Positions 3,635 through 63,995 of a stretch of DNA of 64,000 nt are shown here, piece by piece. Position 1 is the first letter of the stretch. Every line of letters starts with the position of its first letter. The notes below the pieces were generated by a model, which worked only from the letters and a program-made list of their open reading frames with translations, was not told the DNA's origin and ran no database searches. The stretch comes from Alphaproteobacteria bacterium (GTDB lineage Bacteria; Pseudomonadota; Alphaproteobacteria; Rs-D84; CACZYB01). The stretch is taken from the NCBI GenBank assembly GCA_017938435.1, contig JAGBBO010000008.1, forward strand, positions 74,525-138,524. Direction: 5' to 3'. A program made the position numbers and the translations under genes.

Positions 3635-3901
3635 TTGTATTTTCATAATTATCTTTTAATTATGTTAGTAAAGTTTTTAATTGTAATTATTAGAGGATAC
3701 CAAATTTTTATTTCCCCACTTTTTGGTGGTAGATATAGATGCCGATTTTTCCCAAGATGTTCGGATTATTCTATTGAAGTTTTGAAAAATTTTGGTATAG
3801 TTAAGGGCAGTTATTTAACAATAAAAAGAATTTTACGCTGTAATCCATTTTGTGAAGGGGGATATGACCCTGTACCACAAAGGAATAATGAAAGGAAATA
3901 A
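3635..3901 (+). CDS. yidD: membrane protein insertion efficiency factor YidD
   Basis: 88 aa with conserved Cys residues (FFPRCSDY...RCNPF). Lies immediately upstream of yidC. Confidence 0.8.
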
Positions 3902-3904
3902 ATT

Positions 3905-6185: not shown

Positions 6186-6249
6186 TTGATGTATTATCTT
6201 GTTGTAATTATCGGATTTTTTCTTTGCTAAACTTTTATATACAAAATAC

Positions 6250-6278
6250 TTGACAAAACTAAAAATTTGTTGTAATTT
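6250..6278 (+). promoter_or_regulatory. sigma70-like promoter upstream of the OMP gene
   Basis: TTGACA, a 17-bp spacer, then TAATTT. Confidence 0.35.
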
Positions 6279-8490: not shown

Positions 8491-9879
8491 TTATTTTTGT
8501 TTTATCAAAAAACTGAAATGTTGAAAGTTTAAAGTGTTGGGATAATTATACTTTGAATAAACTAAAATATCACAATCATCTTGACCTTTTTTCATTTTAT
8601 TTGTTTTGGATTTGATTATATAATTTAATATATTGTTAAGATAAGCCATTTCCCAATAATCCTTTTGGGGATAACAAATTGATTTATTGGAATTATATAT
8701 TTGAGTAAGTTGACCAAGGGATTTTTCGGTATTTGTATTATAATCATTAAATTTTTTTAAATTTGCATTTTTATTCTTTATTGAGAAAAGTATTAAAATA
8801 AATAGTATTGCATATACTATCTTTTTGTATTTGATTTTATTTAAGACTATATAGATCGATGGAAGACTTACTATTAAACACAATTTATAGTAATGGTGTC
8901 CCCATTCTATACATAATATGAAAAATGAAATCATCCAAACAAAACCACATAGAGATAATGTATGTATTAAAAAATATTTATCCTTTTTTATAAGTTTCCA
9001 AAAATCATATATCCAAAGTGGAAAAAGGAAATATAAAAATTTGTTATTATAAAAAATAAAGGATAGATAGTTAAGATATTTTTGGATTGATTTTGGTTTA
9101 TCAACTTCCATATATATCCATTCTTCATTAAAATCTTTTACTACAAGTATGTAATATAAAAGTAAGAAAATTGCACAATTTGCAAAAATTCCATAGATAA
9201 AATATTTATCCAGTTTTGTTAGTTTTTTTCTGTTGAAAACTAGTTGTGCTATTGCAATAGTTATGAATATCCCTATGACTGTTTCTTTACAATAAGTTGT
9301 ATAGAACATAATAATTCCAGAAATAATGTAATATAAAGGTTTTTGTTCTTTTTGTGCCTTTATATAAGTCATTGTAAATATGATTAGTAATGTTGAAATT
9401 ATCATTTCTGCATAAACAGGTTCGTAAAAAATTTCAAATGTATAATCCGAAAATAAAAACATTATTGAAAAAACGATAAATTTATCAAATTTTACTTTTG
9501 CAAGTTGAGAAATGTATTTGGTTAAGAAATATATGCTGATAAGCAAAATTAAAAATTTTATGTTTAAAAATTGATATGTAAGAGCAAGTTTGTTCACTGA
9601 ATCTGGAAAAATTAATAAAATATTGTAGTCCAGCATTTGAAATGGTAAAAATCTTAATGCTCGACCCACATTATATTTAAATGGAAGAAATTTATCCATA
9701 AATATTGTGTTAGAAAAAAATTCGGCGGTATCTCCACTGACTGGAAAAAAATTAATGGAATTTAGGGCAAAAATGAAATAGTAAGAAAGTAAAAACATAA
9801 GAAAAATAATTCCATAATTTATTGTTTTTTCGATGTTTTTATTCTTTTTAATTAGTTTTTGTAGTTTTTTAATTTTCAT
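8491..9879 (-). CDS. polytopic integral membrane protein, possible GT-C-type glycosyltransferase or polysaccharide polymerase
   Basis: 462 aa with more than 10 predicted TM helices. Extremely Ile/Phe/Tyr-rich. Adjacent to the acetyltransferase. Confidence 0.4.
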   Translation of the reverse strand: MKIKKLQKLIKKNKNIEKTINYGIIFLMFLLSYYFIFALNSINFFPVSGDTAEFFSNTIFMDKFLPFKYNVGRALRFLPFQMLDYNILLIFPDSVNKLALTYQFLNIKFLILLISIYFLTKYISQLAKVKFDKFIVFSIMFLFSDYTFEIFYEPVYAEMIISTLLIIFTMTYIKAQKEQKPLYYIISGIIMFYTTYCKETVIGIFITIAIAQLVFNRKKLTKLDKYFIYGIFANCAIFLLLYYILVVKDFNEEWIYMEVDKPKSIQKYLNYLSFIFYNNKFLYFLFPLWIYDFWKLIKKDKYFLIHTLSLCGFVWMISFFILCIEWGHHYYKLCLIVSLPSIYIVLNKIKYKKIVYAILFILILFSIKNKNANLKKFNDYNTNTEKSLGQLTQIYNSNKSICYPQKDYWEMAYLNNILNYIIKSKTNKMKKGQDDCDILVYSKYNYPNTLNFQHFSFLIKQK

Positions 9880-22892: not shown

Positions 22893-25556
22893 ATGTCATC
22901 CATATCAATAATTATGCCGGTTTATAACAGAGAAAAATTTTTAGATAGAAGTGTTGGTTCTCTTATTTCTCAGACATTTAAAGATATAGAAATTATTTTG
23001 GTGGATGATGGTTCTGTTGATAATTCAGGAAAAATATTAGATAATTTTGCAAAACAAGATTCAAGGGTAAAAGTTTTTCATCAAAAAAACTCTGGTCCTG
23101 CAACTGCAAGAAATGTTGGTCTTGATAATGCAACAGGTGAATACATTATGTTTTGTGATAGTGATGACGCGTATGAACCAAATATGTGTGAGGTGATGTA
23201 TAAAACTATTTGTGAGAAACGGGCTGATTTAATTTTGTGTAGTGCAAAAAATGAGTATGGAACAGAACTTTATAAATTTAAAAAAAATTTATCTATAGTT
23301 GATGTTTTTTCAGATGTTGTATTGTGGAATAAAATTTTTAAAAAGTCGTTAATTGATAAGTATAATATAAGATTTCCTGATGGATATTTGAGTGATGATG
23401 ACTATTTTACTTTTGTGTATGCCTGTGTTTCAAAAAAGTATTATTTCACAAATAAAGTTTCATATTTTTATGTAACAGAAAATCCGGATGGTATTTGTTC
23501 TATGAGTTTAAAAAAGCCATCGAATCTTGCTGTGGAAAGTCATTTTTATGTAATAGAAGCTATTATTGATTTTTGTAAGAAAAATAATTTTTATAAAAAA
23601 TACAGAAAATATATTTATGACAAAATAAAAGAAACAGTATTTTATTTATCCTTAATAAATTACGATTATGAAAAATGTTTAAATTTATTGTTAAAATTTT
23701 TGGAAAAAACTGATTTTTCAACTAAGGAAAAAGATAAGGTTGTAAAAATCTATTCAACCTATAGACCTAGGTTGCATTATGAATATCCTGTTAAGCTGGA
23801 TAATAGTGCAAAAAATATAGTATTTTGTGTCGATTATTGTTATTTGAATTATTTATTTACCACAATAAGATCGTTGTGCAAAAATGCAAATAAACAATAT
23901 AAGTATGATGTATATATAGTTTATACAAACGGTCTTTCGTATCCATATTTTGAAAAGTTTTGGCATGAATTTGAAAAATATAAAAATATTACTTTGCATT
24001 TTTGTAATATTTCGGATTTGTATAATAAATATTGTGATGAAAAATCTTTTTATCAAGTTGGAAGAATTCCAGCCGTTGGATCGTATAGGTTGTTTTTATC
24101 AAAAATTTTTGATGGTGAAAAAATCCTTTATTTAGATAGTGGTGATATAATTGTAAATAAAGATGTTGCTGAATTTTTTAATCTTGAACTTAAAAATAAT
24201 ATTATTGCTGCGGTAAAGGATTTTGTTTTTCCAAGGATTGATTTTAAAAATACAGTTTTGGATAAAGATATGCTTTCGCCTTTTTTACAAAAGGTTGGAT
24301 ATAATGATTATGGAAATTATATAAATTCTGGGGTCCTTTTAATTAACCTTAAAGAATATAATAAATGTTTTGATGGATTTTTAAAATGTATGTATGAAAA
24401 ATCTTCGAATATGGATCAAGATATTTTAAATTATGTTATTCCAAAATCACGAATTTTGTTTTTATCGACTGCATATAATTTTCAGATAGGTTCTATTGAT
24501 TTGGTAGAAAAATTTGATAAAGAATATGCTGAATTTTATAAAAAATCTAATCTGAAAAATTCTTTTATAATTCATTATACAAGGGATAAAAAGCCATGGA
24601 AGTTTTATTTGAAATGGAATAATATTTATTTTTGGAAATATGCTTGGGTGTATTTTTTTAGATATATTTGGGTTTATAAAGATCTTAAACTTTCTGGTGA
24701 TGCAATATTATCTTTTGTTTATAATACAGGTAGTGAAAATGCAAATGTGGAAGTTGTAAAAGAACCAAGATTTTCATCAATTCGGGAAACTATGTTTGGT
24801 GAGGTTAAACACAATAATGGAATATGTGTGTGGGAGCCGTCTTTGTTTGTTAAAATGAAGGTTAGGGCAAAAGGAAATGGAAAAATTCATATAGTATTGT
24901 CTGGGACTGATAAAAAATATATATATTACAATAAATTGATTGTTAATGAGAAAGTTTTGCTTAATAAAATTCTTCCTGTAAATCAATATAATACTACTGA
25001 ATTTTTGATGCCAGTAAAAGATGGGGAAGTTATTGATTTGTATATTCAAAAATCATCGTTAAGATTTATTGGTTTTTTGAAAAGAATTGTGTTATGTATT
25101 AAACGACTTTTTGCTTCTAAAAATAAAAATTTTTCATTGAATATATTTGCTTTGAATACTCAATCTTTTGAGAATAAAGTTGACGTGTTGGATGAAAATA
25201 GAACTAATGTTTTATGGTTGGATTATCCAAAGTGGCTTTCAAATGAATGGGAAAATGGGGCCTTTATTGCAACAAAATCAAGATATTGTTCTTTTGATGT
25301 AAGGTTTATAAAGGATGGAATGTTTAAGTTAATACTTTCTACTTCGAAAGAGGATAAAATTGCGTATGTATCAAAGGTAGTTATGAATGATAATGTTATT
25401 TTAAATGGAATTTTTCCAGTGTCTTATTTCAAAAGAGTAAATCTTATGTTCCCTGTGAATAATGGGGATATAAAACGAATTAAGGTTTATGGTAAAAAGC
25501 ATAGTATTATTGGCTTTATTAAAAACTTTTTCATTAAAGAAAATTATAAAGAATAA
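22893..25556 (+). CDS. multidomain glycosyltransferase: GT2 (N-terminus) + GT8 (LgtC/RfaJ-like) + two C-terminal ~130-aa repeats
   Basis: 887 aa. GT2 motifs (IIMPVYNREKFL, VDDGSVDNS, CDSDD). GT8 motifs (YLDSGDIIV, NSGVLLINL, DQDILNYV, HYTRDKKPW). The C-terminal repeats both end in ...IGFIK. Confidence 0.75.
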   Translation: MSSISIIMPVYNREKFLDRSVGSLISQTFKDIEIILVDDGSVDNSGKILDNFAKQDSRVKVFHQKNSGPATARNVGLDNATGEYIMFCDSDDAYEPNMCEVMYKTICEKRADLILCSAKNEYGTELYKFKKNLSIVDVFSDVVLWNKIFKKSLIDKYNIRFPDGYLSDDDYFTFVYACVSKKYYFTNKVSYFYVTENPDGICSMSLKKPSNLAVESHFYVIEAIIDFCKKNNFYKKYRKYIYDKIKETVFYLSLINYDYEKCLNLLLKFLEKTDFSTKEKDKVVKIYSTYRPRLHYEYPVKLDNSAKNIVFCVDYCYLNYLFTTIRSLCKNANKQYKYDVYIVYTNGLSYPYFEKFWHEFEKYKNITLHFCNISDLYNKYCDEKSFYQVGRIPAVGSYRLFLSKIFDGEKILYLDSGDIIVNKDVAEFFNLELKNNIIAAVKDFVFPRIDFKNTVLDKDMLSPFLQKVGYNDYGNYINSGVLLINLKEYNKCFDGFLKCMYEKSSNMDQDILNYVIPKSRILFLSTAYNFQIGSIDLVEKFDKEYAEFYKKSNLKNSFIIHYTRDKKPWKFYLKWNNIYFWKYAWVYFFRYIWVYKDLKLSGDAILSFVYNTGSENANVEVVKEPRFSSIRETMFGEVKHNNGICVWEPSLFVKMKVRAKGNGKIHIVLSGTDKKYIYYNKLIVNEKVLLNKILPVNQYNTTEFLMPVKDGEVIDLYIQKSSLRFIGFLKRIVLCIKRLFASKNKNFSLNIFALNTQSFENKVDVLDENRTNVLWLDYPKWLSNEWENGAFIATKSRYCSFDVRFIKDGMFKLILSTSKEDKIAYVSKVVMNDNVILNGIFPVSYFKRVNLMFPVNNGDIKRIKVYGKKHSIIGFIKNFFIKENYKE

Positions 25557-25626
25557 GAATAAATTCTTGATATTTAAGATTATATTTATTACAATTCCCT
25601 TTATAAGGAAAAGGGGTTTTTTTATT

Positions 25627-27018
25627 ATGTCTTTTATTTTAAGTGTAATTTTTTGCTTGTTTGTTTTTGAAACACCTGTATTTGCTGAGGATGTAAAAAG
25701 TAGTGAAAATGTAAATGAAATATCGCTCAAAAGTGATAAAAAATTACAAAAAGATAGTGAAACAATTTCCCTTAATCCAATACAAATTATCAATCTTGCA
25801 AAAAAGTTTATTGAAGAAAAAAATTATGCTGGGGCAAGAATTCTTCTTACAAAATCACCATTTAATGTTAAGGAACTTGAAATAGAAAGGTTGCATTTGA
25901 TTGCAACTCTTGATGTCGTGGAAGGTAAAATTGATGATGCTATTGAAATTTATAGGTTTATTTTGGATTATCAACCAAATATTCCAAGTATTCGTTTAAA
26001 ATTGGCGGAACTTTATTTATTGCAAGGTTCTTATTATAAGGCTGATTATCATTTTAGACTTGCAGCAACAGATAAAACTTTGCCAACGGAAGTTCAAAAG
26101 AATATTGCAATGGCTCTTTATTTTGTGCGTCAAAATAAAAACTGGAATTTTTGGTTCAATTTTGGTGCTGCACCTGATAACAACATAAATAATGCAACTA
26201 ATAATAGTTATTGTTTACCTTCTACTGGCTGGTGTTCTTCTAATGATAAAGAAAAAGCTGTTGGTTTGAATGTTTCATTTGGGGGAAATTATGAATTTAA
26301 ACTTTCGGACAGGTGGCGTTTAAGAAACGAGGGAGTTGTTTATACTTCGAAATATAATAAAAGCGAATATGATGATTTATATTTAAGTTATGTTTTTGGT
26401 GGTAAATATGTTTGGCAAAGGGGAGATGTTTTCTTTGGCCCTAGTGTATCCCGTCGTTGGCTTGATCATCAGCCATACAACAGGACTTTTGGAGGAAGAG
26501 TTGATTTAGATTATGATTTTACCAAGCATCTTTCTGGTGGGATAAGTGGTTATTTTACACCTACTTATTATGATGATTATTCTGATATATTGGATGGTGA
26601 TGTTTATGGTTCAAGGGCAAGACTTTTTTATACTTTTGATTCTTCAAAATACCTTGCATTTAAAATTGGATACGAGCGTGAAAATACAAAAGATAAAAGA
26701 TATGCAAATGTGAAAAAATCTTATGCTATTGGTTTTGGAGCTGAACTTGGTTGGGGATTTTCTATGTATATAGAACCATCAATTCAATATACTGATTATA
26801 AGGATGAAAAAGCTGTAATGAGGGATTTATACGTTTATGATTATATTGTAGAGTCGGATGTGACACGCAAGTATATGCTTTCACTTTCCAATCGTAATAT
26901 AAAACTTTGGGGATTTGTGCCAACAATTACTTATGTTTATACTGATAAAACTTCAAATGTATGGCAAAAGGAATATTCAAAATCGACTGTGGAATTTACT
27001 GTTAATCAAAGATTTTAA
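25627..27018 (+). CDS. outer-membrane TPR + beta-barrel protein, candidate Slam (surface lipoprotein assembly modulator, DUF560-like)
   Basis: Start refined to the ATG at 25627 (RBS aaggaaaagg; signal peptide MSFILSVIFCLFVFETPVFA). About 140 aa of TPR-like helices, then an aromatic-rich beta-strand region ending in a terminal Phe. A TbpB-like lipoprotein lies 0.9 kb away. Confidence 0.55.
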   Translation: MSFILSVIFCLFVFETPVFAEDVKSSENVNEISLKSDKKLQKDSETISLNPIQIINLAKKFIEEKNYAGARILLTKSPFNVKELEIERLHLIATLDVVEGKIDDAIEIYRFILDYQPNIPSIRLKLAELYLLQGSYYKADYHFRLAATDKTLPTEVQKNIAMALYFVRQNKNWNFWFNFGAAPDNNINNATNNSYCLPSTGWCSSNDKEKAVGLNVSFGGNYEFKLSDRWRLRNEGVVYTSKYNKSEYDDLYLSYVFGGKYVWQRGDVFFGPSVSRRWLDHQPYNRTFGGRVDLDYDFTKHLSGGISGYFTPTYYDDYSDILDGDVYGSRARLFYTFDSSKYLAFKIGYERENTKDKRYANVKKSYAIGFGAELGWGFSMYIEPSIQYTDYKDEKAVMRDLYVYDYIVESDVTRKYMLSLSNRNIKLWGFVPTITYVYTDKTSNVWQKEYSKSTVEFTVNQRF

Positions 27019-27884: not shown

Positions 27885-29774
27885 TTATTTTTTCTTTGCA
27901 CCGAAGGAAATACCAAATTTAATAGATCCACTTTCACCATTTTCATCTATCCAATCATGTGTTTCACCTTGGAATTGTCCAATAACTTCGGTTGGATTAT
28001 TTGCGCCATAGTAGGCTGTTGTTAAATTCTTGTTTTGTAGAGCTGTATCTAAGTCAGTGATTTTTCCTTCATCTTCTGTCATAAAGTGCTCTTTTACATT
28101 ATCAGCAATATCTTTGTTATCAGCAGTAAATGTTGCAGATTTTATGGAGCCATTTTCTGTATCAACATTGATATCATACCAATTATCAAATTTGAATTGG
28201 ATATTTTCTGCTTTATTTTCTGCATCCTTAACAGTTAAGTCAACAGTTCCAGCCAAATCCATAGAAGAGTCGTTGCCATTATGAATATTTTCTATTACTT
28301 GACCAACGGCAGTTCCTGTAAATTTTGTTCCGTTTTCTACTTTTGTAATATCGGATTTGTAATAATCATTTCCGCCATTGATTAAGTAGTAATAATATTC
28401 GTTTTCATGAGATACAGGAATATCAAGTGTGGCTTTTACATATCCAAATTGTGTATATGATAAATTAGCACTTGCACCACCAAGGACAAGGTCATAATTT
28501 ACAACAAAGTTGTTATTTTCCTTTTCAACTTTTAATTTATAACCATTGCCAAGGTCAACGAAACCTTTATTAAAATCAGTTTCAGAAATACCTTCTAAAA
28601 GTAATTTTTTAACCTTGTCAAAGTCAGCTGAACTTTCTTCATCTTTACCAATTAACGCACTTAAAAATTCGAAATCAGCACCTTCCCAATCATCAGGTCT
28701 TGACTGATTGATATAGTTAGCAAGCTCTTCAAATTTTGTTATATTGCTAACATCTGTTTTAACATTTGCATCAGTGAATATTTGATTTGATGTAGTTCTA
28801 TCCAATACACTTGTCTTTGCTGTTCCATCTTCATTTGTTATTATATTACCGTCTTTATCATACAAAAATTCGGTTCCTGTAACACCAAGAAGAGAGTTAT
28901 CTTTATAAATGCTTAAAACATTCATCTTTGTTGTTTCAGATTTACGACCAGATACAATTTTTGTTTTTTCATCTTGTTTTAAATCTTTCAATTCAAATGT
29001 TTTTGAAATATCAGTTATACGATTATTGTTATCATATTCATATAATTTTAATTCTACAGCAACAGCATTTCCATTTTCATCAGTAACAAATTTTAATTCT
29101 GGATCTTTGTCAGCGTCGGAAGCAATAACAGCGGTTAATCCCCATTTGAAATCAGTGTCAAGTTTGAATGATTTTGCTTGGAATGTTGTTTCTTTTGCCT
29201 CAACACTTTCTTTTATTTTATCTAATTTTGAGATAAAAGTATCAAGAACTTTGTCTGCTTCTTTTGTAATATTTTCAGCTTCTTCTTTGCTAACAAAAAT
29301 AGAAACACCTTCTTTGATTACATTTGTAAGGATATCATCTTGCTTTTTTTCGGTAAATTTTTCAGCAATTTTTTCTAGTTTATCTTGTGCAGATTTAAGC
29401 CATTTTGCATAGATTTGAATAAGGTTATATTTCATTTCTGTTTCTGTTAATTCAGATGACTTTTTCCAGTTTGTAGTTGTTGCACGACGATGAGATTTTG
29501 CACTGCGATTTGTATTTTCATCAGTTGATGAGAAAATTTCATTATCTATTTCAACTATGGTATCATAGTTTGAAGTATCTATTTCATCACCGATATTTTG
29601 TTCTGCTTTTGCAATGATATCTTTTGAATTATCTTTTTCCACAGCAAGTTTTTGTTTTGATTGTTCGCGAATATTAACGGTTGTAGAACTAGGCAATGTA
29701 GAAACAGGGGAATTTCCACCACCACAAGCAGTAAGTGTTAAAAGCAATACAGTTAAACTAACTTTATTTTTCAT
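27885..29774 (-). CDS. surface lipoprotein with TbpB/fHbp-like C-terminal handle-barrel domain (candidate Slam-dependent SLP)
   Basis: 629 aa. Lipobox LTACGGGNS. Long charged coiled-coil-like middle region. The C-terminus carries the TbpB_B_D-like signatures (SYTQFGYV...YYYYLINGG...GTKFTGTAVGQV... and terminal GSIKFGISFGAKKK). Confidence 0.6.
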   Translation of the reverse strand: MKNKVSLTVLLLTLTACGGGNSPVSTLPSSTTVNIREQSKQKLAVEKDNSKDIIAKAEQNIGDEIDTSNYDTIVEIDNEIFSSTDENTNRSAKSHRRATTTNWKKSSELTETEMKYNLIQIYAKWLKSAQDKLEKIAEKFTEKKQDDILTNVIKEGVSIFVSKEEAENITKEADKVLDTFISKLDKIKESVEAKETTFQAKSFKLDTDFKWGLTAVIASDADKDPELKFVTDENGNAVAVELKLYEYDNNNRITDISKTFELKDLKQDEKTKIVSGRKSETTKMNVLSIYKDNSLLGVTGTEFLYDKDGNIITNEDGTAKTSVLDRTTSNQIFTDANVKTDVSNITKFEELANYINQSRPDDWEGADFEFLSALIGKDEESSADFDKVKKLLLEGISETDFNKGFVDLGNGYKLKVEKENNNFVVNYDLVLGGASANLSYTQFGYVKATLDIPVSHENEYYYYLINGGNDYYKSDITKVENGTKFTGTAVGQVIENIHNGNDSSMDLAGTVDLTVKDAENKAENIQFKFDNWYDINVDTENGSIKSATFTADNKDIADNVKEHFMTEDEGKITDLDTALQNKNLTTAYYGANNPTEVIGQFQGETHDWIDENGESGSIKFGISFGAKKK

Positions 29775-43369: not shown

Positions 43370-44023
43370 TTGAAAATTTTTAAAAAAATTAAAACTTATA
43401 AACGAGCTGTGCGTGTTTTATATAAAAATATGACTACGCACAGCCGTGTTGTTTTTCTTTTGAAAATTGCTTTGCCAAGTTTTATTGCTTTGTTTTTAGG
43501 GATGATTATTATTGTTCCAAATATTGATGATAAAATTAAAAATATAAAAATATCTATGCCAAGTTTGGAAAGCACAGATAAAATTTCATTCAATATGGAT
43601 AGGGCTGATTTTTATGGTCAAGGTGATGATAATACTTTATTTTCTGTGAATATCGAAAATTTTAAGGAAAATAAAGAAAATCAAGAAATGTATTTTTCAA
43701 AGATAAAGAGTAAAATATTTTTGGAAGATGGTAGTTGGATTGACCTTTCAACTGATGATGGAAATTATAAAAAAACAAAAAATATGTTTTCTATGCGTGG
43801 AAATATTTATTTGTTTGATAGTGATAATAATCAAGTTTATACAGATGAAGCTGATGTAAATCTTAAAGATATGACTGTATCTGGGGATAAAAAAATTCGT
43901 GCGATTACTCCGTTTGGAGAAATAGAAAGTGATGGCTTTTATTTCAAAAAGAACGAAGTATATCACTTTCTTGGTAAAGTGAAGGGTAATATAGATACTT
44001 CGAAAATTCAAAAATCTAAATAG
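43370..44023 (+). CDS. lptC: LPS export system protein LptC-like
   Basis: 217 aa with an N-terminal TM anchor followed by a beta-rich periplasmic domain. Sits immediately after kdsD, as in the kdsD-lptC arrangement. Confidence 0.45.
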   Translation: MKIFKKIKTYKRAVRVLYKNMTTHSRVVFLLKIALPSFIALFLGMIIIVPNIDDKIKNIKISMPSLESTDKISFNMDRADFYGQGDDNTLFSVNIENFKENKENQEMYFSKIKSKIFLEDGSWIDLSTDDGNYKKTKNMFSMRGNIYLFDSDNNQVYTDEADVNLKDMTVSGDKKIRAITPFGEIESDGFYFKKNEVYHFLGKVKGNIDTSKIQKSK

Positions 44024-45605
44024 ATTTCTTTACAATTATTGAAAGTTGACGACCTTCATCTGTAGGAGTGTTGTTTGCATAGTCTTTTGTAATAACGCTT
44101 CTTCGATAACTAAAGAATAAATCACTTTCTTTATATGTATCAAATGGCAAAATTTCAATATTTTTTATACCTTCAGCATTTAACTTCATTTTACAGAAAC
44201 CAGAACAATCGAAAAGATACTTTTCATCTTTTGGAATAAATAAACTTTCAAAATTTTCGTTTTCTTTTGTAATTTTTTCCATAAAATCTTTATCAACTTC
44301 GTATGAATTTTGTTTTAGACATGGACCTAAAACAACCTTTATATCACGAGGATTTGAACCAAAAGATTTCATTTTTTCAATAGCTGTATGCACAATATTT
44401 TTATGTATTCCTTGCCATCCACAATGAATTGCACCTATAAGGCCTGTTTTTTCATCGGAAATAAGTAGGGGAACGCAATCTGCTGTAAGTATGCCAATAG
44501 CCAAGTTAGGTTGATTTGTGATTATACCATCAACTTTCATATTTAGATATTTTTCAATATCTTTAACAGGTGTATCAATATAAATAACTTCGTTGGTGTG
44601 TTGTTGATTAACTGTGATTAAAGATGTATCAGAATTCAATCCCAAATCATTTAATAATCTATGGCGATTTTCAGCAACATTTTCCTTTGAATCTGATGTT
44701 TCAAATTTGCAATTTGCGGATGCAAAAACGCCAGATGATACACCATTTTGTCTTGTAAAAAATCTAGTTTTAATAGATTGATTTTCAAGAAATGGTGAAG
44801 AAACATATTTTTGAATAACTTGTTCCTTTTTTGATAAGTAGATTATTGCTGTTATTGATGCAAGAATCATTGGAATAGTTAAAAGTTGTCCCATTGTTAT
44901 GCCAAATTTTAAAAATCCAATTTGAGCATCTGGTTCACGAAAGTTTTCGATAATAATTCTTGCAATACCATACAAACCAACAAATGCAAATGCAGTTGTG
45001 CCGTAACGATTTTTTACGGCTTTGAATTTATGTATTACAAAAAGAATTAAAAATAAAATTAAACCTTCGCCAAATGCTTCGTAAAGTTGACTTGGATGAC
45101 GAGGAAGTCCGTCGGTGTTAGGAAAAATAATTCCTAAAGATGATAAGGTTGGTCTTCCGTAAAGTTCACCATTTATGAAGTTTGCTATACGACCAAGAAA
45201 TAGTCCAATAGGGGCAGCCATTGCAAATAAATCAGCAATTTGAAAAAATGACTTTTTATGATATCTACACCATAAAAATATTGTTGTTATTACACCAACA
45301 AGTCCGCCGTGAAATGACATTCCTCCTTCCCATATTTTGAATATATCAAGAGGGCGAGAAATATAATAACTGAAATTATAAAATAATGTATAACCAACAC
45401 GACCGCCGATAACAACACCCAAAACACAATTTGTAAATAAATCATCAAGTTCTGAATATGAAATAGCAGTATTTGTGCTATGTCTTAATATGTGTTTAAT
45501 ATAATAAAATGCAAATATAAATCCAAATATGTAAGAGAGTGCATACCAACGAATATCAAATCCTAAAATAGATATTGCAACAGGGGATATATTTGGAAAT
45601 TGCAT
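44016..45605 (-). CDS. lgt: prolipoprotein diacylglyceryl transferase (Lgt) fused in frame to a PgeF/YfiH (DUF152, Cu-oxidase_4) domain
   Basis: Residues 1-~265 form the Lgt membrane domain (GGRVGYTLFYN, WEGGMSFHGGLVG). Residues ~280-529 carry PgeF motifs (TADCVPLL...HCGWQG). The reading frame is continuous. Confidence 0.7.
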   Translation of the reverse strand: MQFPNISPVAISILGFDIRWYALSYIFGFIFAFYYIKHILRHSTNTAISYSELDDLFTNCVLGVVIGGRVGYTLFYNFSYYISRPLDIFKIWEGGMSFHGGLVGVITTIFLWCRYHKKSFFQIADLFAMAAPIGLFLGRIANFINGELYGRPTLSSLGIIFPNTDGLPRHPSQLYEAFGEGLILFLILFVIHKFKAVKNRYGTTAFAFVGLYGIARIIIENFREPDAQIGFLKFGITMGQLLTIPMILASITAIIYLSKKEQVIQKYVSSPFLENQSIKTRFFTRQNGVSSGVFASANCKFETSDSKENVAENRHRLLNDLGLNSDTSLITVNQQHTNEVIYIDTPVKDIEKYLNMKVDGIITNQPNLAIGILTADCVPLLISDEKTGLIGAIHCGWQGIHKNIVHTAIEKMKSFGSNPRDIKVVLGPCLKQNSYEVDKDFMEKITKENENFESLFIPKDEKYLFDCSGFCKMKLNAEGIKNIEILPFDTYKESDLFFSYRRSVITKDYANNTPTDEGRQLSIIVKKSI

Positions 45606-49265: not shown

Positions 49266-49296
49266 GAAGGCAGGGCTTTGTTACCTGCCTTTATTT
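49266..49296. terminator. bidirectional rho-independent terminator
   Basis: aggcagggctttgttacctgcctttatttttt. Confidence 0.55.
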
Positions 49297-49856
49297 TTTG
49301 AAAAAATATCGATATAAAATTGTTGTTTAAGAATTTCTTTTTCTGTTTTTGGTAAATAGAATCGAGTAAGTTTATTTATATATTGTTCCAATGTTTGTTT
49401 TTTATGCATGTGATTTTTACAAAAATTAAGTTCGTTTTTATTATAATTTATTTCATTTTTTATTGTTTCTTTTTTATTGATTAGGCGATTAAGTTCATTT
49501 TTATATTTTAATACAGATGATTTTGAAAGGGTATTTGATGGATATTTTTTGATTATTGAAATTATTTCCTTTTTTAAATTTAAAGTTTTTTGGAACAATT
49601 CAATTTCTTCAATATTGTAAATCCTATTTATGCTGGAATTTAATTCTTTTTCAAATTTATTATAGATTTGGTTTGATTGTTTTGTTTTTATATATTGAAG
49701 TTCTTTTATTAAATAAGATTTTTCTTTTTCAAGATGTTTATATTTTATATTTATAATTTTTATTTCCGATAAAAGGTTTATTATTTTGTAATAATCTTCT
49801 TTTGAAATACTATCATTTTCGATGTTTTCAATTAAAATTTTATTAAAAGTTGTCAT
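49281..49856 (-). CDS. hypothetical coiled-coil protein
   Basis: 191 aa, Lys/Glu/Asn/Ile-rich with heptad-like repeats. No domain recognised. Confidence 0.45.
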   Translation of the reverse strand: MTTFNKILIENIENDSISKEDYYKIINLLSEIKIINIKYKHLEKEKSYLIKELQYIKTKQSNQIYNKFEKELNSSINRIYNIEEIELFQKTLNLKKEIISIIKKYPSNTLSKSSVLKYKNELNRLINKKETIKNEINYNKNELNFCKNHMHKKQTLEQYINKLTRFYLPKTEKEILKQQFYIDIFSKNKGR

Positions 49857-50031: not shown

Positions 50032-50559
50032 ATGAGTTTAAGAGATAGAATAGAAGATTTTATATATAATGTTGATGAAATTCAAATTGCTATCTTGTTA
50101 GTTTCTCTTATTATAGGTACTGCAACTGCTATAGGTGTTTCGTCTAATAAATCTGAATTAAAAAATACTAATTTTGAAATAAAAGAAGCTCCTGTTTTAG
50201 CAAAGTTTTCAGAACAAAATATTGGGGGAAATAGTCATAGTATTTCAACAAACTATGATTATAGATTTATTCTTGATATTGATGAAGATGGTCTTTATAA
50301 CAAAAATAAAGATATTGTTATTGCTGGTGATAATATTCCTTATTACCTTTTAGAAAAAGATAATAGAATAGTTTATCTTGAAGTAACTCGTAAAGATAAT
50401 GTTCTTAGAAGATCTCCTCTTGTTGTTAAAGATAAAGAAGAGAAGTCGCATTTGGTTTCTGAAGTTGAAGATTGTTGTAATGTTAAATTTTGGAAAAAAA
50501 ATGAATCATTTAATAAAACAAACCAAATTTTTAAAGATAAATATATAAATCAAAGATAA
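50032..50559 (+). CDS. hypothetical membrane-anchored protein, paralog B of the duplicated cassette
   Basis: 175 aa with an N-terminal TM helix. Paralogous to 1002-1583. Confidence 0.7.
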   Translation: MSLRDRIEDFIYNVDEIQIAILLVSLIIGTATAIGVSSNKSELKNTNFEIKEAPVLAKFSEQNIGGNSHSISTNYDYRFILDIDEDGLYNKNKDIVIAGDNIPYYLLEKDNRIVYLEVTRKDNVLRRSPLVVKDKEEKSHLVSEVEDCCNVKFWKKNESFNKTNQIFKDKYINQR

Positions 50560-54054: not shown

Positions 54055-55098
54055 TTATTTTCTTGTAAATGTTGTATATACATTAAGACCGCCACTTTTA
54101 CTTTTATAAAAATAAGAATCTGTATCAACGAAATTAAGTCCACCATTATGTACAGATGGATCATAGCTTCTTGGAAATTGATCCACTTCATCTTGAGAAC
54201 AATAGACTGTTACACTCCGATTTCCAAGATTATTAGTTGAAAAATCATAAGTAATAAGATAATAATCTGTAGTGCCATACCACTCTGTATCTAATGTTTT
54301 ATTAAATCCATCATTTGCCTCACTAATATATGTATAGGTTACAACAGAAGAATAAGTGTCATTCCCGTTATCGTTACATCCGCCAACCCTTCGTTTATAA
54401 GCATAAAGACTTAATTTACAATTATTACCACTTCTATAATATCCTGAGTTACATGCAAAATTACATGCATTATCTGTCCAATAACCACCGGCCTTTGTTC
54501 CGCAAGAATGACAGTCAGAACCGGTATAACCTGTATGACATGTATAACCGCAACCACTTGATGAAGACCAACCTGAATTACTTGGTTTTGAACATGCTGT
54601 ACAGGTTCCATTTGTCGTAGCAGAGCAATAATTATGTCCTGAACAAGACATAGCTTTTGATTCTGTTGTTGTTTCCGAATTTCCAGTTGGTGATGTAGAA
54701 CCTGCTTTTGTGCAATACTTTGTCACACTTCTTGTTACCGTTCCACAATTTCCACCCCATGTTCCATAATTTGTTGAAGAACAAGAACTACAACTTGATG
54801 CTCCTCTACCTGAGTATGTTCCTGCACCACAACTACTACATCCGGTTGAACCAGTTTGGTTTGCACCTTTGTTCGAGTAAGTTCCGGCGTTACATGTTGA
54901 GCAAGAACTTGCATTACCAGTTGAGTATTGACCGGCTGGACATTCCTTACATTTTTCTAATGTTCCATCACTGTAAGTTCCCGCAGCACAGCTTTGACAC
55001 ACGAACAAATATGGGTATTGCAAAGCGTGTGCATCTTGGTTTGTATATGTTGTTGCAATTGCAAAAATTGATGCAGTTGTTAGATTTCTTAACTTCAT
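54055..55098 (-). CDS. secreted Cys-rich repeat protein (CxxCxxGTYS ephrin-receptor-like / GCC2_GCC3-type repeats)
   Basis: 347 aa. Signal peptide. At least 4 tandem repeats of the C-x2-C-x-AG-T/Q-YS...C-x2-C type, plus further Cys-rich modules. The C-terminal ~120 aa are Cys-poor and Tyr/Thr-rich. Confidence 0.65.
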   Translation of the reverse strand: MKLRNLTTASIFAIATTYTNQDAHALQYPYLFVCQSCAAGTYSDGTLEKCKECPAGQYSTGNASSCSTCNAGTYSNKGANQTGSTGCSSCGAGTYSGRGASSCSSCSSTNYGTWGGNCGTVTRSVTKYCTKAGSTSPTGNSETTTESKAMSCSGHNYCSATTNGTCTACSKPSNSGWSSSSGCGYTCHTGYTGSDCHSCGTKAGGYWTDNACNFACNSGYYRSGNNCKLSLYAYKRRVGGCNDNGNDTYSSVVTYTYISEANDGFNKTLDTEWYGTTDYYLITYDFSTNNLGNRSVTVYCSQDEVDQFPRSYDPSVHNGGLNFVDTDSYFYKSKSGGLNVYTTFTRK

Positions 55099-59165: not shown

Positions 59166-61256
59166 ATGGTTGAAAGTTTGGAATATTTTTTTCAATCTCT
59201 TATACAAGTAAAAGGAGTTGGCGATAAATTTTTTCAAGGATTAAGGCGACTTTTACCTAATACAAGATTTAAAGATATTCTTTTTCATTTTCCAGTTGAT
59301 GTAATAGATAGATCATATACTTCGCAAATAATGGATGCGGAAGTAGGTAGAGTTGTAACATTAAAGGTTGATGTTTTGAAACATATTCCTGCACCATATA
59401 TTAGAGGGCGAAAAATCCCGTATAAAGTTCTTTGTAGTGATGATAGTGGTTTTATAACTTTGAATTTTTTTAATGCAGGTAATTATTTGCTAAAATCTAT
59501 GCCTGTTGGTGCAAAACTTTGCATTAGTGGAAAAATAGAAGATTTCGATGGTGGAAGGTGTATGAATCATCCTGATTATATAGTTCCAGTCAATCAATTT
59601 GAAAAAATTGCAGGTTTGGAACCTGTTTATCCACTTACCTATGCAATTACAAATAAGATGATTAGAAATGTTGTAGATGTAGTTCTTAATAATTTACCAA
59701 GGGTTCCAGAGTGGCAAAATGATGCCAATATTTCATTTACAGATTCATTGAAAATTATTCATAGACCTATTAAAAATATGGATATAGTTAAAGAGGCAAA
59801 ACGAAGAATTGCATATGATGAAATTCTTGCAAATCAATTAGTATTGGCTATTTCCAGAAATAAATTTAAAACAGAATCAGGTGCAAAAATTATCCCTTCT
59901 GGGGAATTTATTGAGCCATTTGTTAAATCATTTGGTTATGAACTAACTGGGGCACAAAAAAGAGTTTTATCTGAAGTTATGACTGATTTAAAATCGGAAA
60001 ATAGAATGCTTAGACTTCTTCAGGGAGATGTTGGTAGTGGTAAAACTATTATTGCGATGATTGCACTTCTTGCAACAGTGGAAAGTGGTGGGCAAGGGGC
60101 GTTTATGGTCCCTACAGAAATACTTGCCCAACAACATTTTGAAACATTTACAAAACTTTTAGATAAATCAGGTTTGTCGGATAAAGTTCGTATAATTCTT
60201 TTAACAGGAAAAGATAAAGGTAAAATAAAAACAGAAAAACTTTCATTACTTGAAAATGGATTGGCAAATATTGTTATTGGAACACATGCAATTTTTCAAG
60301 AAAAAGTAAAATTTAAAAATCTTTTGTTATCGGTTATTGATGAACAACATAAGTTTGGAGTTCATCAACGATTAAGTTTAACAAATAAAAATTCTGAAAA
60401 TAAATGTAATATTTTAACTATGACTGCGACTCCTATTCCAAGAACTTTGGCTATGACTTCGTTTGGTGATATGGATTTATCAATTATTGATGAAATGCCT
60501 CCAAATAGAAAAGAAGTTGAAACAAAAGTTATGAATATGAATAAAATTGATGAATTGATTCCTTCTATTGAGGGGCAAATAAATTTAGGGATTCTTAAAA
60601 AACTTTATTGGGTTTGCCCATTGGTTGAAGAAAGTGAAAAAATTGATTTATCGGATGCTATTTCAAGATATGAATTTTTGAAAACCGTGTTTGGAGATAG
60701 TGTTGCACTTATTCATGGGAAAATGAAATCTGATGAAAAAGATGAAATTATGCAAGAATTTGCAAATCCAAATGGAAAAATTAAAATTTTGGTTGCTACT
60801 ACGGTTATAGAAGTTGGTGTGAATGTTCCGGAGGCTACTTTAATGATAATAGAACATAGTGAAAGATTTGGACTTTCTTCACTTCATCAATTAAGGGGGC
60901 GTATTGGTCGCGGAGCCGATAAATCTATCTGTATTTTACTTCATTCTTCGAAAATGACTCTTGTTGCAAAAGAAAGGCTTGCCGTTATGAAGGAAACTAC
61001 TGATGGGTTTAAAATTGCAGAAAAAGATTTAAAACTTCGTGGTGCAGGGGATATTCTTGGGGTCAGACAAAGTGGGCTTGTCGATTTTAAAATTGCAAGT
61101 TTGGAAGATGATTATGATTTATTTTTGGCTGCATCACAAGATGTTAAGAATATTATTTCTATTGATATGAAAAATAATACAGAAAGGTGGCAAAATCTTA
61201 AATATTTATTACAACTATTTGAATATACAGGACAAATTAAAAATATGAAAGCATAG
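59166..61256 (+). CDS. recG: ATP-dependent DNA helicase RecG
   Basis: 696 aa with an N-terminal wedge domain and a helicase core (GDVGSGKT, DEQH, TATPIPRT). Confidence 0.9.
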   Translation: MVESLEYFFQSLIQVKGVGDKFFQGLRRLLPNTRFKDILFHFPVDVIDRSYTSQIMDAEVGRVVTLKVDVLKHIPAPYIRGRKIPYKVLCSDDSGFITLNFFNAGNYLLKSMPVGAKLCISGKIEDFDGGRCMNHPDYIVPVNQFEKIAGLEPVYPLTYAITNKMIRNVVDVVLNNLPRVPEWQNDANISFTDSLKIIHRPIKNMDIVKEAKRRIAYDEILANQLVLAISRNKFKTESGAKIIPSGEFIEPFVKSFGYELTGAQKRVLSEVMTDLKSENRMLRLLQGDVGSGKTIIAMIALLATVESGGQGAFMVPTEILAQQHFETFTKLLDKSGLSDKVRIILLTGKDKGKIKTEKLSLLENGLANIVIGTHAIFQEKVKFKNLLLSVIDEQHKFGVHQRLSLTNKNSENKCNILTMTATPIPRTLAMTSFGDMDLSIIDEMPPNRKEVETKVMNMNKIDELIPSIEGQINLGILKKLYWVCPLVEESEKIDLSDAISRYEFLKTVFGDSVALIHGKMKSDEKDEIMQEFANPNGKIKILVATTVIEVGVNVPEATLMIIEHSERFGLSSLHQLRGRIGRGADKSICILLHSSKMTLVAKERLAVMKETTDGFKIAEKDLKLRGAGDILGVRQSGLVDFKIASLEDDYDLFLAASQDVKNIISIDMKNNTERWQNLKYLLQLFEYTGQIKNMKA

Positions 61257-61263: not shown

Positions 61264-61300
61264 ATTGACAAAATACTTGACAAAAACAAAATAATATATT
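61264..61300 (+). promoter_or_regulatory. sigma70-like promoter region with two TTGACA boxes upstream of the 61328 operon
   Basis: gtattgacaaaatacttgacaaaaacaaaataatatattatatta. Confidence 0.35.
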
Positions 61301-61327
61301 ATATTAAGGGTGAATTAAGGAAAAAAT

Positions 61328-62464
61328 ATGGATATAAGTGCGATAAAATATAATGATATAAAAAAGCCTATGCAACCAAATAAAATTGTGGTTGAAAATT
61401 TGTATAATAATACAAAGTATGCAGGTGTGGTTTTTGATTATATCCTTAACTTGCTTGAAAAAAGATTTAAAGAGCAGGTCGGTGGTAATTGTAAACTTAA
61501 GATGGGTCCTTTAAAAGCAGCACAAAGAGTTTATGAAAAAATAAAAGATGATGATATAAAAACTTCATCAAATGTTTTGGATTTTTTAAGAGCAACTTTT
61601 TCTTTTGATACGATAGAAGATTTATTAGATTTTGTGAATTTTACAAAAAGTTATTCTTTTACAAATGAAGATTTTAATGCAGATACTTTGAATAAAAAAG
61701 TTTTATCAAAGATAGAAAGTAGAACTAAAACAAATTTGATTCAGGCTGATAAAAATATTGGTATTGTTAATATCTATGAAAAATATGAAACTGCATTAAA
61801 TGCTTGTGAAGGAACTGATAAAGAACTTAGAGAAAAAATAAAAGAAAGAAGATCAAAAGAAGTTGAAGAATTTTCTAAAAGTTTCAACTTTTCAGAAGAA
61901 GAAATTAATTCTGAAGCTATGGCTACATTCACATCTTTTAGAAATTTTTTGAAAAATAATGAAAATCTCCCTATTGCAAATGTAGGTGTTTCAAACAGCT
62001 TTTCTTTGGGAATTGATAATGAAATAAAAACAAAATATCCTTTTTTAAAAGATAAATTAAAGGAAAGAAACAGTAATTATATGGATTTGAAATTCTATGT
62101 TTGTATTCCAATTCCTTTTAGTGAAAACAAAGATTATATGATTTGTGAAGTTATTACTACACTTAACTGTTTTGATAAAATTTACAATAAAACACATGTT
62201 TTGTTGGAACTTGAGAGGTCTGAATTTACCCCTCATAAACAAGATGATGTAACGGAAGCTGATTTTAAGGAAGGTATAAAATTAATAAAGCGTGCGATGT
62301 ATTTAGATGATGTAATTGAAAAATATAATAACGAACATCCAAATTCTATTCAGATAGTTCCTTATAAAAATGATAGGGAATATATCAATGAAACATTGAA
62401 TAAATTAGGTGATAAACTTAGTTTTTCGATGAGAATTTGCGGTTGTGAAAAATTTATGAGGTAA
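61328..62464 (+). CDS. hypothetical protein (first gene of an unknown two-gene operon)
   Basis: 378 aa, soluble. RBS aaggaaa. No recognisable motif. Ends ...CGCEKFMR. Confidence 0.5.
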   Translation: MDISAIKYNDIKKPMQPNKIVVENLYNNTKYAGVVFDYILNLLEKRFKEQVGGNCKLKMGPLKAAQRVYEKIKDDDIKTSSNVLDFLRATFSFDTIEDLLDFVNFTKSYSFTNEDFNADTLNKKVLSKIESRTKTNLIQADKNIGIVNIYEKYETALNACEGTDKELREKIKERRSKEVEEFSKSFNFSEEEINSEAMATFTSFRNFLKNNENLPIANVGVSNSFSLGIDNEIKTKYPFLKDKLKERNSNYMDLKFYVCIPIPFSENKDYMICEVITTLNCFDKIYNKTHVLLELERSEFTPHKQDDVTEADFKEGIKLIKRAMYLDDVIEKYNNEHPNSIQIVPYKNDREYINETLNKLGDKLSFSMRICGCEKFMR

Positions 62465-62468
62465 AAAA

Positions 62469-63248
62469 ATGGGTGACACATATTACATTCCTAAAATAGA
62501 AGTATCAAAAAAACAAATTAGTATTTGTCAAGATACTGATAAAAGAGAACTGTTATTTGCAAGAAATAAAACCTCTAATGGAGAATCTCCTTTGTTCTTT
62601 AAAAAAGGAGATGGTATTGACAAGTCAAAGTTAGTGGCGACTATGTCATATAAAAAAATTGGGCAAAAGTTGGCAAAGAAAATATCTTTGGTTAGCGGTT
62701 CTGACTTTTTCTATAAATATGATAAAAAAACAGGTTATTTTGATAAACAAAGAAGTTTGATAAGTCCTTTTGGTAATGAATATTCTATATATAGTATGAG
62801 TATGAAAAAATTTTATTCTGAGCTTATTGATATTTTAAAAGTTCGTTTGACATTGGGATTTATTGAAAGTGATGATAAGACACAGTCTGCTGAATACTAT
62901 TTCAGAAATGCTCATAAATATATTCTTATGCGTAAATACAATTTTAATATTGAAGAATGTATTAACTTTGTAAATACAGTTGTGGCAAGATCTTATATTC
63001 CTGAGGAATTTTATGAAGGATTTTTAGCCGAGTTTAGAAAATCATTTTATGATGGCGAATTTTCAAAGGGTGAAATTTTGGAACGAGAAACCGAAGCAAA
63101 ACTTTCTCTTATGAATGAAAAAAATGGAAAAGTTGCGTTCGATGATATGAATCTTTATACAAAAATTATAAATGATATGAGTATTGAAAAGAATGAACGC
63201 AAAATGAATATGATAAGACTTCGTGAAGAAATGTTTAAACACCATTAA
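62469..63248 (+). CDS. hypothetical protein (second gene of an unknown two-gene operon)
   Basis: 259 aa. Starts 5 bp after the preceding stop. No recognisable motif. Confidence 0.5.
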   Translation: MGDTYYIPKIEVSKKQISICQDTDKRELLFARNKTSNGESPLFFKKGDGIDKSKLVATMSYKKIGQKLAKKISLVSGSDFFYKYDKKTGYFDKQRSLISPFGNEYSIYSMSMKKFYSELIDILKVRLTLGFIESDDKTQSAEYYFRNAHKYILMRKYNFNIEECINFVNTVVARSYIPEEFYEGFLAEFRKSFYDGEFSKGEILERETEAKLSLMNEKNGKVAFDDMNLYTKIINDMSIEKNERKMNMIRLREEMFKHH

Positions 63249-63261
63249 AATAAATATATTG

Positions 63262-63296
63262 AAAAATCCCCTTAAAAAACTAAGGGGATTTTTAAT
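63262..63296. terminator. bidirectional rho-independent terminator
   Basis: aaaaatccccttaaaaaactaaggggatttttaa. Confidence 0.65.
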
Positions 63297-63311: not shown

Positions 63312-63995
63312 TTATTTAAGATAATATGAATTTGTAACATTCATTGCATCATCAAATTCATATACGAATGGAGATGCAGTAGGAATATTTAATTCAATAA
63401 TTTCTTCTGGTGTATATTTTGAAATATACATTTCCAAAGCACGAAGTGAATTACCATGTGCAACGACCAAAACATTTTCACCTTTTTGAAGACGTGGCAA
63501 AATTTCCTTTTCATAATAAGGAACAACACGATTAACAGTATCAAGAAGACTCTCTGCTAATGGAAGTTCTTCTGGTTTCAAATCCTTATATTTTTCATCG
63601 AATGCAGGATTGCGTTTATCATCTTTTTCCAACAATGGAGGCTTTACATCATAAGAACGACGCCAAATTTTAACTTGGTCAGCACCATATTTTTCAGCAG
63701 TTTCAGCCTTGTTCAAACCTTGCAATGCACCATAATGGCGTTCGTTAAGGTGCCAATCATGAATTTGTGGAACATTTGTAAGTTCAGCAGATTCTAATAT
63801 ATTTTTTGCTGTTTCAAGTGTGCGAGTAAGAACTGATGTATAGCAAACATCGATTTTTTCACCCTTTAGTAACGAACCAGCTTTTTTAGCTTCTTCAATT
63901 CCATTTTCAGAAAGTGAAACATCAGTCCAACCTGTGAAAAGATTTTCTTTATTCCAAACACTTTCGCCATGGCGAACTAGTATTAATTTTGACAT
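63312..63995 (-). CDS. gpmA: 2,3-bisphosphoglycerate-dependent phosphoglycerate mutase
   Basis: N-terminus SKLILVRHGESVWNKENLFTGW with the catalytic His, and the histidine phosphatase fold. Confidence 0.9.
   Translation of the reverse strand: MSKLILVRHGESVWNKENLFTGWTDVSLSENGIEEAKKAGSLLKGEKIDVCYTSVLTRTLETAKNILESAELTNVPQIHDWHLNERHYGALQGLNKAETAEKYGADQVKIWRRSYDVKPPLLEKDDKRNPAFDEKYKDLKPEELPLAESLLDTVNRVVPYYEKEILPRLQKGENVLVVAHGNSLRALEMYISKYTPEEIIELNIPTASPFVYEFDDAMNVTNSYYLK

Follow-up and report, generated by a model that had tools for sequence, protein, structure and literature searches.

A gene pair beside recG in rumen and gut Alphaproteobacteria: a probable, highly divergent RSH synthetase-fold protein and its orphan partner

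Bacterial stress signalling depends centrally on RSH (RelA/SpoT homologue) enzymes, which in the form of toxSAS, Tas1 and CapRel also have a central part in warfare between bacteria and in immunity to phages. Here we analyse a two-gene operon in a 64,000-nucleotide stretch (the window) of an uncultured alphaproteobacterial genome (assembly GCA_017938435.1, contig JAGBBO010000008.1, positions 74,525 to 138,524), comprising gene A (61328..62464, + strand, 378 amino acids) and gene B (62469..63248, + strand, 259 amino acids). We propose that A very probably has a true RSH synthetase fold and, though strongly diverged, belongs to the Tas1-like branch and keeps what looks like an intact active site; it is encoded with an orphan partner protein, B. 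That the two form a domesticated, chromosomally fixed toxin-immunity or abortive-infection pair of the toxSAS kind is the reading we prefer, and on the present analysis we consider its chances evenly balanced.

Four groups of described systems come closest. Tas1/Apk1-Tis1, a (p)ppApp synthetase toxin of the Pseudomonas aeruginosa type VI secretion system (T6SS) with its immunity protein (PDB 6OX6), provides the best PDB sequence match of the A family, and known (p)ppApp synthetase toxins are encoded beside structural immunity proteins, as in Tas1-Tis1 and Apk2-BcTis1. A has in common with Tas1 a P-x-K-x7-K-x13-D-x2-R-x-T segment and the order of an enzyme gene followed by a dedicated partner gene. 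Unlike Tas1, A carries a helical insertion of ~90 residues and a different C-terminal domain, lacks a PAAR/Rhs delivery domain and has no visible T6SS context; the A-B locus is fixed beside recG and not in an effector island, and B has no fold similarity to Tis1, chain B of 6ox6 being absent from its Foldseek matches. The toxSAS enzymes (FaRel, FaRel2, PhRel, PhRel2 and CapRel; Jimmy et al. 2020, PMC7229694; Dominguez-Molina et al. 2024, PMC11782079) resemble A in being small stand-alone proteins of the RSH synthetase fold that are paired with a cognate protein in a tight two-gene operon. In FaRel2 the ATP triphosphate is bound by K66, S70 and K74 and Mg2+ by D90, with E145 in contact with adenine (PMC11782079); A keeps equivalents of K66, K74, D90 and E145, and CapRel is among its fold matches. 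In contrast to toxSAS, A is missed by the Pfam RelA_SpoT model, B belongs to none of the pZFD/YXXY, Tis1-like, Panacea or SAH partner classes, and A is acidic whereas the tRNA-targeting toxSAS use basic tRNA-binding surfaces. The distribution of A-B is vertical and syntenic, unlike the patchy spread through mobile elements and defence islands that is typical, if not strictly defining, of toxSAS.

RelQ and RelP (SAS1 and SAS2 of Firmicutes; PDB 5DEC and 6EWZ) are the best structural matches of A and align with it collinearly as profiles, but share 8-12% identity with it; A has changed RxKxxxSxxxK and DxxGxR motifs and shows no evident C-terminal tetramerisation helices, and neither RelP nor RelQ has a dedicated partner gene such as A has. 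A also falls in the Tas1-like RSH branch that holds the exported alarmone synthetases (SaEAS/SaSAS and VpEAS; Ahmad et al. 2025, PMC12691689). The Sec-type SaEAS and VpEAS have signal peptides and no immunity genes, and other members carry secretion-targeting domains (PMC12691689); A, unlike them, has neither a signal nor a targeting domain as judged by eye and by domain search, but does have a partner gene. The inferred A accessions of two genomes and that of the homologue P0006 were not found in the supplementary lists of Ahmad et al. 2025, and no description of the A family was found in the searchable literature, an absence that is no proof of novelty. We conclude that A-B is a new variation on the theme of an RSH enzyme plus a cognate protein, and that A represents a subfamily of its own, new and highly divergent, in the RSH synthetase superfamily.

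Structure comparison pointed to this placement. An AlphaFold2 model of A (predicted local distance difference test, pLDDT, 78; predicted template modelling score, pTM, 0.78) was searched against the PDB with Foldseek, and ranks 1-31 were exclusively RSH synthetase domains, among them Staphylococcus aureus RelP, Bacillus subtilis RelQ and YwaC, streptococcal small alarmone synthetase (SAS), the tRNA pyrophosphokinase CapRel and Tas1. RelP 6ewz came first (E=2.8e-3, probability 1.0, template modelling (TM) score 0.56 normalised on the target), RelP/RelQ-type matches spanned TM 0.56-0.60 on that normalisation, and below rank 31 stood unrelated proteins, including phosphatases, at a probability of ~0.1. 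The predicted order of strands and helices in A agrees with that of RelQ within the SYNTH alpha/beta fold, a five-stranded nucleotidyltransferase-like sheet with flanking helices.

Family profiles led to the same superfamily by sequence, independently of the fold. A profile hidden Markov model (HMM) of 20 A-family members, run against 177,635 PDB sequences, placed Tas1 (6ox6_A) on top at E=0.0019 and SaSAS (8vx3) second, via the segment E...TH.LYE..R; both kept their ranks when the insertion was excised from the profile (Tas1 E=0.002). The profile segment 'plKekeRieeKl...ilDivRatv' aligned to Tas1 'PIKSRERAMQKI...IKDLARNTI' with identical spacing, so that K-x7-K-x13-D-x2-R-x-T is equally spaced in both, and both have Pro at the position of the first Arg of other RSH proteins. 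For comparison with RelQ, a query sequence 100% identical to PDB 5DED was combined with two streptococcal SAS into a RelQ-type profile. Against it, the excised A core aligned with hhalign collinearly across the whole domain, though weakly (P=0.016-0.019), equating K63, K71, D85, Y251, D253, K255 and E274 with RelQ K48, K56, D72, Y116, S118, H120 and E139; full-length A aligned to the same three-sequence profile through the K...K motif alone (E=0.12). The distant homologue P0059 bridges the families: the A profile finds it at E=1.3e-5, and Pfam RelA_SpoT matches it at E=2.1e-4 with 22 bits, short of the 27-bit cut-off. The first-pass annotation of this stretch had recognised no motif in either protein. 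At the level of library HMMs this stands, with no credible match for A or B in Pfam, NCBIfam, PHROGs or PADLOC scans; for A it gives way to the RSH motif set that structure and family profiles bring out. Because the curated models of Pfam, NCBIfam and PADLOC do not see the A family, HMM-based RSH surveys have probably missed it.

The residues expected of a synthetase are distributed over two core halves. The first (residues 52-118; 61481..61681, + strand) comprises a strand, the GPLK63...R67...K71 helix, the D85-x-x-R88 strand and a helix, and the second (residues 214-300; 61967..62227, +) contains F225, the Y251-M-D253-L-K255 strand, the E274 strand and the T289-H290...R297 helix. Between them lies the insertion (residues 123-209; 61694..61954, +), modelled as three helices at 123-159, 165-185 and 190-209; it is ~90 residues long here, variable in length, and absent, as alignment gaps show, from family members of ~300 residues. 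A family-specific C-terminal helical region (residues 310-371; 62255..62440, +) bears a Y333-N334 motif in which N334 is invariant and Y333 nearly so. Across the 20 family members F225, E274, H290 and R297 are invariant, and K63, K71, D85, R88, Y251, D253 and K255 are conserved in at least 90%. K63, K71, D85 and R88 align to Tas1 K284, K292, D306 and R309. In the triphosphate motif K63 and K71 keep the exact eight-residue spacing, with R67 in the place of the Ser and Pro61 in that of the first Arg; the catalytic Asp and Glu (D72 and E139 in RelQ, D90 and E145 in FaRel2) are kept as D85 and E274, and the acceptor-stacking Tyr of the YxSxH motif, on the strand after the G-loop, is kept within Y251-x-D253-x-K255. 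Two further motifs are conserved, an N-terminal KPxQP and a C-terminal LCxCR.

Several of these results weigh against the toxin-immunity reading. Protein A of the window has no match to Pfam PF04607 RelA_SpoT at E<=10, and the statistical links to RSH proteins are individually modest (E ~2e-3, low hhalign probability). The first Arg of RxK is replaced by Pro and the Gly of DxxGxR by Arg, both as in Tas1, and the EiQiRT strand has Ile for Gln and Thr for Arg. A could also be read as a dead or repurposed RSH-fold protein, or as an enzyme that transfers another group to another substrate, in which case A-B would have a function unrelated to alarmones. Besides these substitutions, the insertion that splits the core and the location of family-invariant residues (F225, R297, Y333 and N334) outside the classical motifs would fit such a protein. 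We nonetheless regard it as very unlikely: ~20 divergent members still have the Mg-binding Asp and Glu, both Lys and the Tyr that stacks on the acceptor, and Tas1, an active toxin, has the same PxK and DxxR substitutions.

A homologues are very rare. A word-seeded search of 5.8 billion proteins returned 7 clusters, and an exhaustive HMMER profile search of 1.84 billion representatives returned 22 A-family proteins. In P0062, a distant family member of 971 residues, N-terminal ankyrin repeats are fused to an A-like domain with all catalytic motifs intact. The very AT-rich, codon-like composition of P0062 suggests a eukaryote, a giant virus or an intracellular bacterium as its source. A PADLOC PDC-M72A match in the family was discarded, as it involves only the ankyrin region of this protein.

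The ankyrin fusion bears on a further explanation, that A is an exported effector delivered into rival bacteria or a eukaryotic (protist or animal) host, with B as the immunity protein or chaperone that protects against it or escorts it. Tas1/Apk1 and many exported alarmone synthetases are secretion substrates encoded beside immunity genes (PMC12691689), the contigs come from rumen and gut samples, and the KPxQP and LCxCR motifs could be accommodated by this explanation. Inspection by eye, however, revealed no obvious Sec signal or other signal peptide in A, whose chain opens with a short disordered stretch leading into a helix, nor any in B, and a Pfam scan of A detected no PAAR, Rhs, LXG, MuF, DUF4157 or XopAD-type targeting domain. 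Secretion-system genes are absent from the window and from every related locus, and the chromosomal place next to recG is fixed. We consider export, and with it the secreted effector pair that the first-pass annotation had entertained, unlikely.

B is a new protein family. Its AlphaFold2 model (pLDDT 75, pTM 0.52; one good model of five) predicts a beta-rich N-terminal domain (~residues 9-85) and a helical C-terminal domain (112-257), and Foldseek found no significant fold match to it in the PDB or BFVD; PDB sequences gave no match either. The family is tiny, with 9-11 clusters in 5.8 billion proteins even with a profile query, which added just two further, more distant clusters. A Pfam scan of all members produced nothing recurrent. 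Two faint resemblances were set aside: residues 191-230 to the Xre-type helix-turn-helix (HTH) regulator 4ghj (E=0.84, not significant), and a PADLOC PDC-M03A match (E=0.0013) confined to one of 13 family members and treated as chance. B is basic (isoelectric point, pI, 9.0-9.5), and its invariant residues are mostly aromatic, aliphatic or Lys. Since the conserved residues include no HD, Nudix or other metal-site signature, B looks from its sequence more like a binding protein than like an SAH/Aph1-type hydrolase acting on the product.

The two genes lie in a compact transcription unit between recG (59166..61256, +), with queA and priA further upstream, and the convergent gpmA (63312..63995, -). 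The 71-bp recG-A spacer, in which sequence reading found no terminator, carries a promoter region (61265..61305, +) with TTGACA boxes at 61265 and 61277 that belong to a tandem direct repeat, TTGACAAAA, at 61265-61273 and 61277-61285. The second box, with a 17-nucleotide spacer and TATATT (61300-61305), has 11 of 12 matches to the sigma-70 consensus, and no other site of the region looks as much like a promoter. A Shine-Dalgarno sequence for A, AAGGA (61317..61321, +), was read 6 nucleotides 5' of its ATG, and AAGGA/TAAGGA equivalents occur in the related loci L001 and L083. Only 4 nucleotides (62465-62468) separate the A stop from the B start, and the Shine-Dalgarno sequence of B, GAGG (62458..62461, +), lies within the last codons of A, an arrangement that suggests translational coupling; GAGGT/GGAGGT is kept at this junction in L001, L083, L086, L089, L090 and L091. 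A bidirectional intrinsic terminator (63262..63293, both strands) is common to the operon and gpmA. Its hairpin has 13-14 pairs flanked by A and T runs and scores on both strands, and terminator-like hairpins are seen by eye 3' of B in L001, L083, L090 and L091. The self-contained operon that the first-pass annotation had described, with its tandem TTGACA promoter and bidirectional terminator, is thereby confirmed.

The promoter is conserved well beyond the window. A 21-mer, TTGACAAAATACTTGACAAAA, and the downstream -10 region, ATATTATATTA, are conserved 5' of A in L001, L083, L085, L088, L090 and L091, which takes in genomes whose RecG proteins are only 66-77% identical, and partial copies precede the remote homologues of L087 and L089. 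The window itself has a second copy of the 21-mer, TATACAAAATACTTGACAAAA (6238-6258), with 2 mismatches, against a chance expectation of 0.02 per window. It precedes an unrelated orphan gene (6313-7266, +, 317 amino acids) with a signal peptide and an outer-membrane-protein-like sequence. The element represents either a strong promoter architecture typical of the lineage or a shared operator. The orphan at 6313-7266 and the genes beside gpmA in L092 were tested as paralogues of A or B and are not.

A and B form one unit that is co-inherited. Twelve distinct A-family contexts were compared, and in 10 of them a B homologue lies directly 3' of A, with pairs at L001, L002, L083, L085, L090, L091 (a GCA_016648615 contig), the remote L086 and L088, and L089, which sits in an organism of 58% guanine plus cytosine (GC). 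The related contigs come from cattle rumen and other gut metagenomes. The order queA-priA-recG-A-B is kept in every relative recovered, and identity to the window falls from the housekeeping genes to the pair. In L001 it is 89% for queA (90% by BLASTP), 89% for priA, 77% for recG, 45% for A and 52% for B, with gpmA not adjacent; in L083 the corresponding values are 87%, 83%, 72%, 37% and 43%, with gpmA outside the locus; and in L091 they are 85%, 80%, 66%, 42% and 55%, with gpmA at 94%. The L090 contig ends within priA (84%, partial) and gives 69% for recG, 41% for A and 54% for B, gpmA not being detected. L084 and L085 likewise start with the RecG C-terminus.

Sampling through gpmA, independent of A and B, extended this picture. 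The cluster of GpmA proteins at least 90% identical to that of the window spans several genome types. Contigs of the window species (L095-L098) read rpiB-gpmA-B-A-recG-priA, and the pair is near gpmA in L091 and on the P0006 contig too. In the L001-type genome, gpmA (96% identical to that of the window) instead lies beside comEC and a Cys-rich secreted protein (L092-L094), and recG-A-B is followed by a gene of the IMP dehydrogenase family (PF00478); L001 and L092 are taken as one genome from shared samples. As gpmA moves away in L001 versus L092, the pair stays with recG and the downstream flank varies. In no relative examined does recG directly adjoin gpmA, an arrangement that had been put forward as a check on whether the pair was inserted between them. 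The syntenic recG-A-B of L001, L083, L084 (for A), L085, L090 and L091, at RecG identities of 66-77%, speaks against such an insertion, and as far as sampling allows the pair is conserved across all relatives as core genes. Most relatives were retrieved through A or B, so that relatives without the pair could have been missed; a search of genome contigs with recG reached 41% identity at best, with A or B in none of 80 loci. Within these bounds, we regard the pair as long established and fixed in a clade of uncultured, low-GC rumen and gut Alphaproteobacteria and not as a recent insertion.

Divergence within the clade indicates genes under selection. Both A and B have changed more quickly than the genes around them, A at two to three times their rate. 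In L090 and L091, the closest pair with DNA available, identity is 83% for recG, 74% for A and 79% for B, and the ratio of nonsynonymous to synonymous substitution rates (dN/dS) is 0.28 in A and 0.14 in both B and recG, at dS 0.6-1.0. These identities and ratios mark A and B as orthologous, vertically inherited and functional genes, with A under roughly two-fold weaker constraint. They also refute the idea that A and B are chance or decaying frames in an AT-rich spacer, which the low GC of the two genes (26-28%, against 31-34% in neighbouring genes) and their lack of library domain matches might have suggested. At least 8 genomes have full-length orthologues, the folds are predicted with confidence, and promoter, ribosome-binding sites and terminator are conserved; we attach next to no probability to this idea.

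Vertical inheritance under constraint also fits a non-toxic signalling module, in which A would be a lineage-specific small alarmone synthetase serving the cell's own physiology and B its regulator, scaffold or effector rather than an antidote; a stringent-like signal, or one of DNA damage or replication stress given the fixed place after priA-recG, would be an example. The strictly vertical, syntenic position in a core neighbourhood, purifying selection on both genes and the strong, conserved promoter, whose element is shared with an unrelated outer-membrane-type gene, are consistent with this alternative, as are the existence of B-less A homologues, the basic, well conserved B, the acidic A (pI ~6) that is unlike tRNA-binding toxSAS, and the absence of a long RSH gene from the 64-kb window, which says nothing on the rest of the genome. 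However, a two-to-threefold faster divergence of A is unusual for a housekeeping regulator, the closest sequence relatives of A are the toxins Tas1 and SaSAS and not RelP/RelQ, and tight coupling to a dedicated, co-diverging partner is a hallmark of toxin-immunity pairs. We hold this alternative to be possible, if tentatively. A more specific proposal, which we find doubtful, is that A-B is no selfish toxin-antitoxin locus but a new type of chromosomally fixed nucleotide-signalling system linked to priA-recG that, in these reduced gut bacteria, would supplement or replace the classical Rel/SpoT stringent system. A would then make a pyrophosphorylated nucleotide, for example (p)ppApp or (p)ppGpp, on a cue sensed through B, a basic protein of novel fold acting as sensor or effector, and B might bind the conserved tandem TTGACAAAA repeats. 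On this proposal the ankyrin fusion of P0062 would hint at use of the same enzyme in or against eukaryotic cells.

For the toxin-immunity or abortive-infection reading that we prefer, we envisage the following mechanism. A strong conserved promoter would drive A-B, inherited vertically beside recG. A would act in the cytoplasm, binding ATP-Mg2+ through K63, R67, K71, D85 and E274 and, on an acceptor held against Y251, pyrophosphorylating the 3'-OH. This acceptor would most likely be a purine nucleotide and the product of the (p)ppApp or (p)ppGpp type; a purine nucleotide is favoured over tRNA because of the mildly acidic pI of A and its affinities to Tas1 and SaSAS. B would bind A and most likely neutralise or gate it, much as Tas1 is held in check by Tis1 and toxSAS enzymes by type II antitoxins.

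A second set of observations, concerning the pair as a whole, tells against this mechanism. Two A homologues have no adjacent B, which is hard to reconcile with an unconditionally toxic enzyme: in L084 a 432-residue A-like gene (P0053, 499-1797) with an extra ~100 C-terminal residues follows recG, and in L087 the 293-residue P0059 stands alone between a HAD gene and gyrA. By fold, Pfam and motif checks B is unlike Tis1, pZFD (YXXY) and Panacea antitoxins or SAH/Aph1 hydrolases; it is also bigger than antitoxins usually are, and its conservation equals or exceeds that of A. The pair is fixed in a housekeeping neighbourhood across deep divergence, unlike typical toxin-antitoxin and defence loci; no integrase, transposase or tRNA flanks it, no mobile-element context was seen, and neither gene has copies among IMG/VR viral contigs, GenBank phages or PLSDB plasmids. 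The hunch of the first-pass annotation that this is a conflict system is supported in part, by the Tas1/Apk1 and toxSAS relatives and by fast divergence; in PADLOC no defence model matched consistently. In L084, a side observation, dnaE lies convergent downstream of P0053, whose partner gene may have been fused or lost.

An active A would widen the sequence space of pyrophosphokinases and make B a new class of neutraliser or regulator. The pair would then be a rare toxSAS-like module turned into a stable, vertically inherited chromosomal fixture, with a bearing on how conflict systems are domesticated. Unless A proves active, the practical consequences of A-B are modest.

The remaining observations concern other genes. 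RecG and GpmA of the window correspond to MBP3615630.1 and MBP3615633.1 by exact sequence match, and the remaining window genes are ordinary housekeeping genes (yidC, engB, transketolase, PBP1, aroA, lepA, lgt, RNase E/G and amiC). A 529-residue open reading frame (ORF) at 44016-45605 (-) combines Lgt with a C-terminal Cu-oxidase_4 domain (YfiH/PgeF-like) and looks like a gene fusion, and at 22893-27018 an 887-residue fused GT2+GT8 glycosyltransferase ORF overlaps the start of a 509-residue ORF for SlipAM, a surface lipoprotein assembly modifier, by ~70 nucleotides. Five window ORFs without a Pfam domain at the thresholds used, at 27885-29774 (-, 629 residues), 8491-9879 (-, 462), 54055-55098 (-, 347), 50032-50559 (+, 175) and 49281-49856 (-, 191), may be additional lineage-specific orphans. 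Among the related loci, L083 has a 245-residue HD/HD_5-domain protein inserted between priA and recG (3031-3768). In L085, the region 3' of A-B (2394-4052) encodes a 252-residue protein without a Pfam match, Cys/His-rich as judged from its first 60 residues only, and an ADP-ribosylglycohydrolase. In L092 (5886-8035), and also in L093 and L094, two Cys-rich secreted proteins (329 and 115 residues) lie by gpmA/comEC, followed by recA, lexA and two HTH_3 genes.

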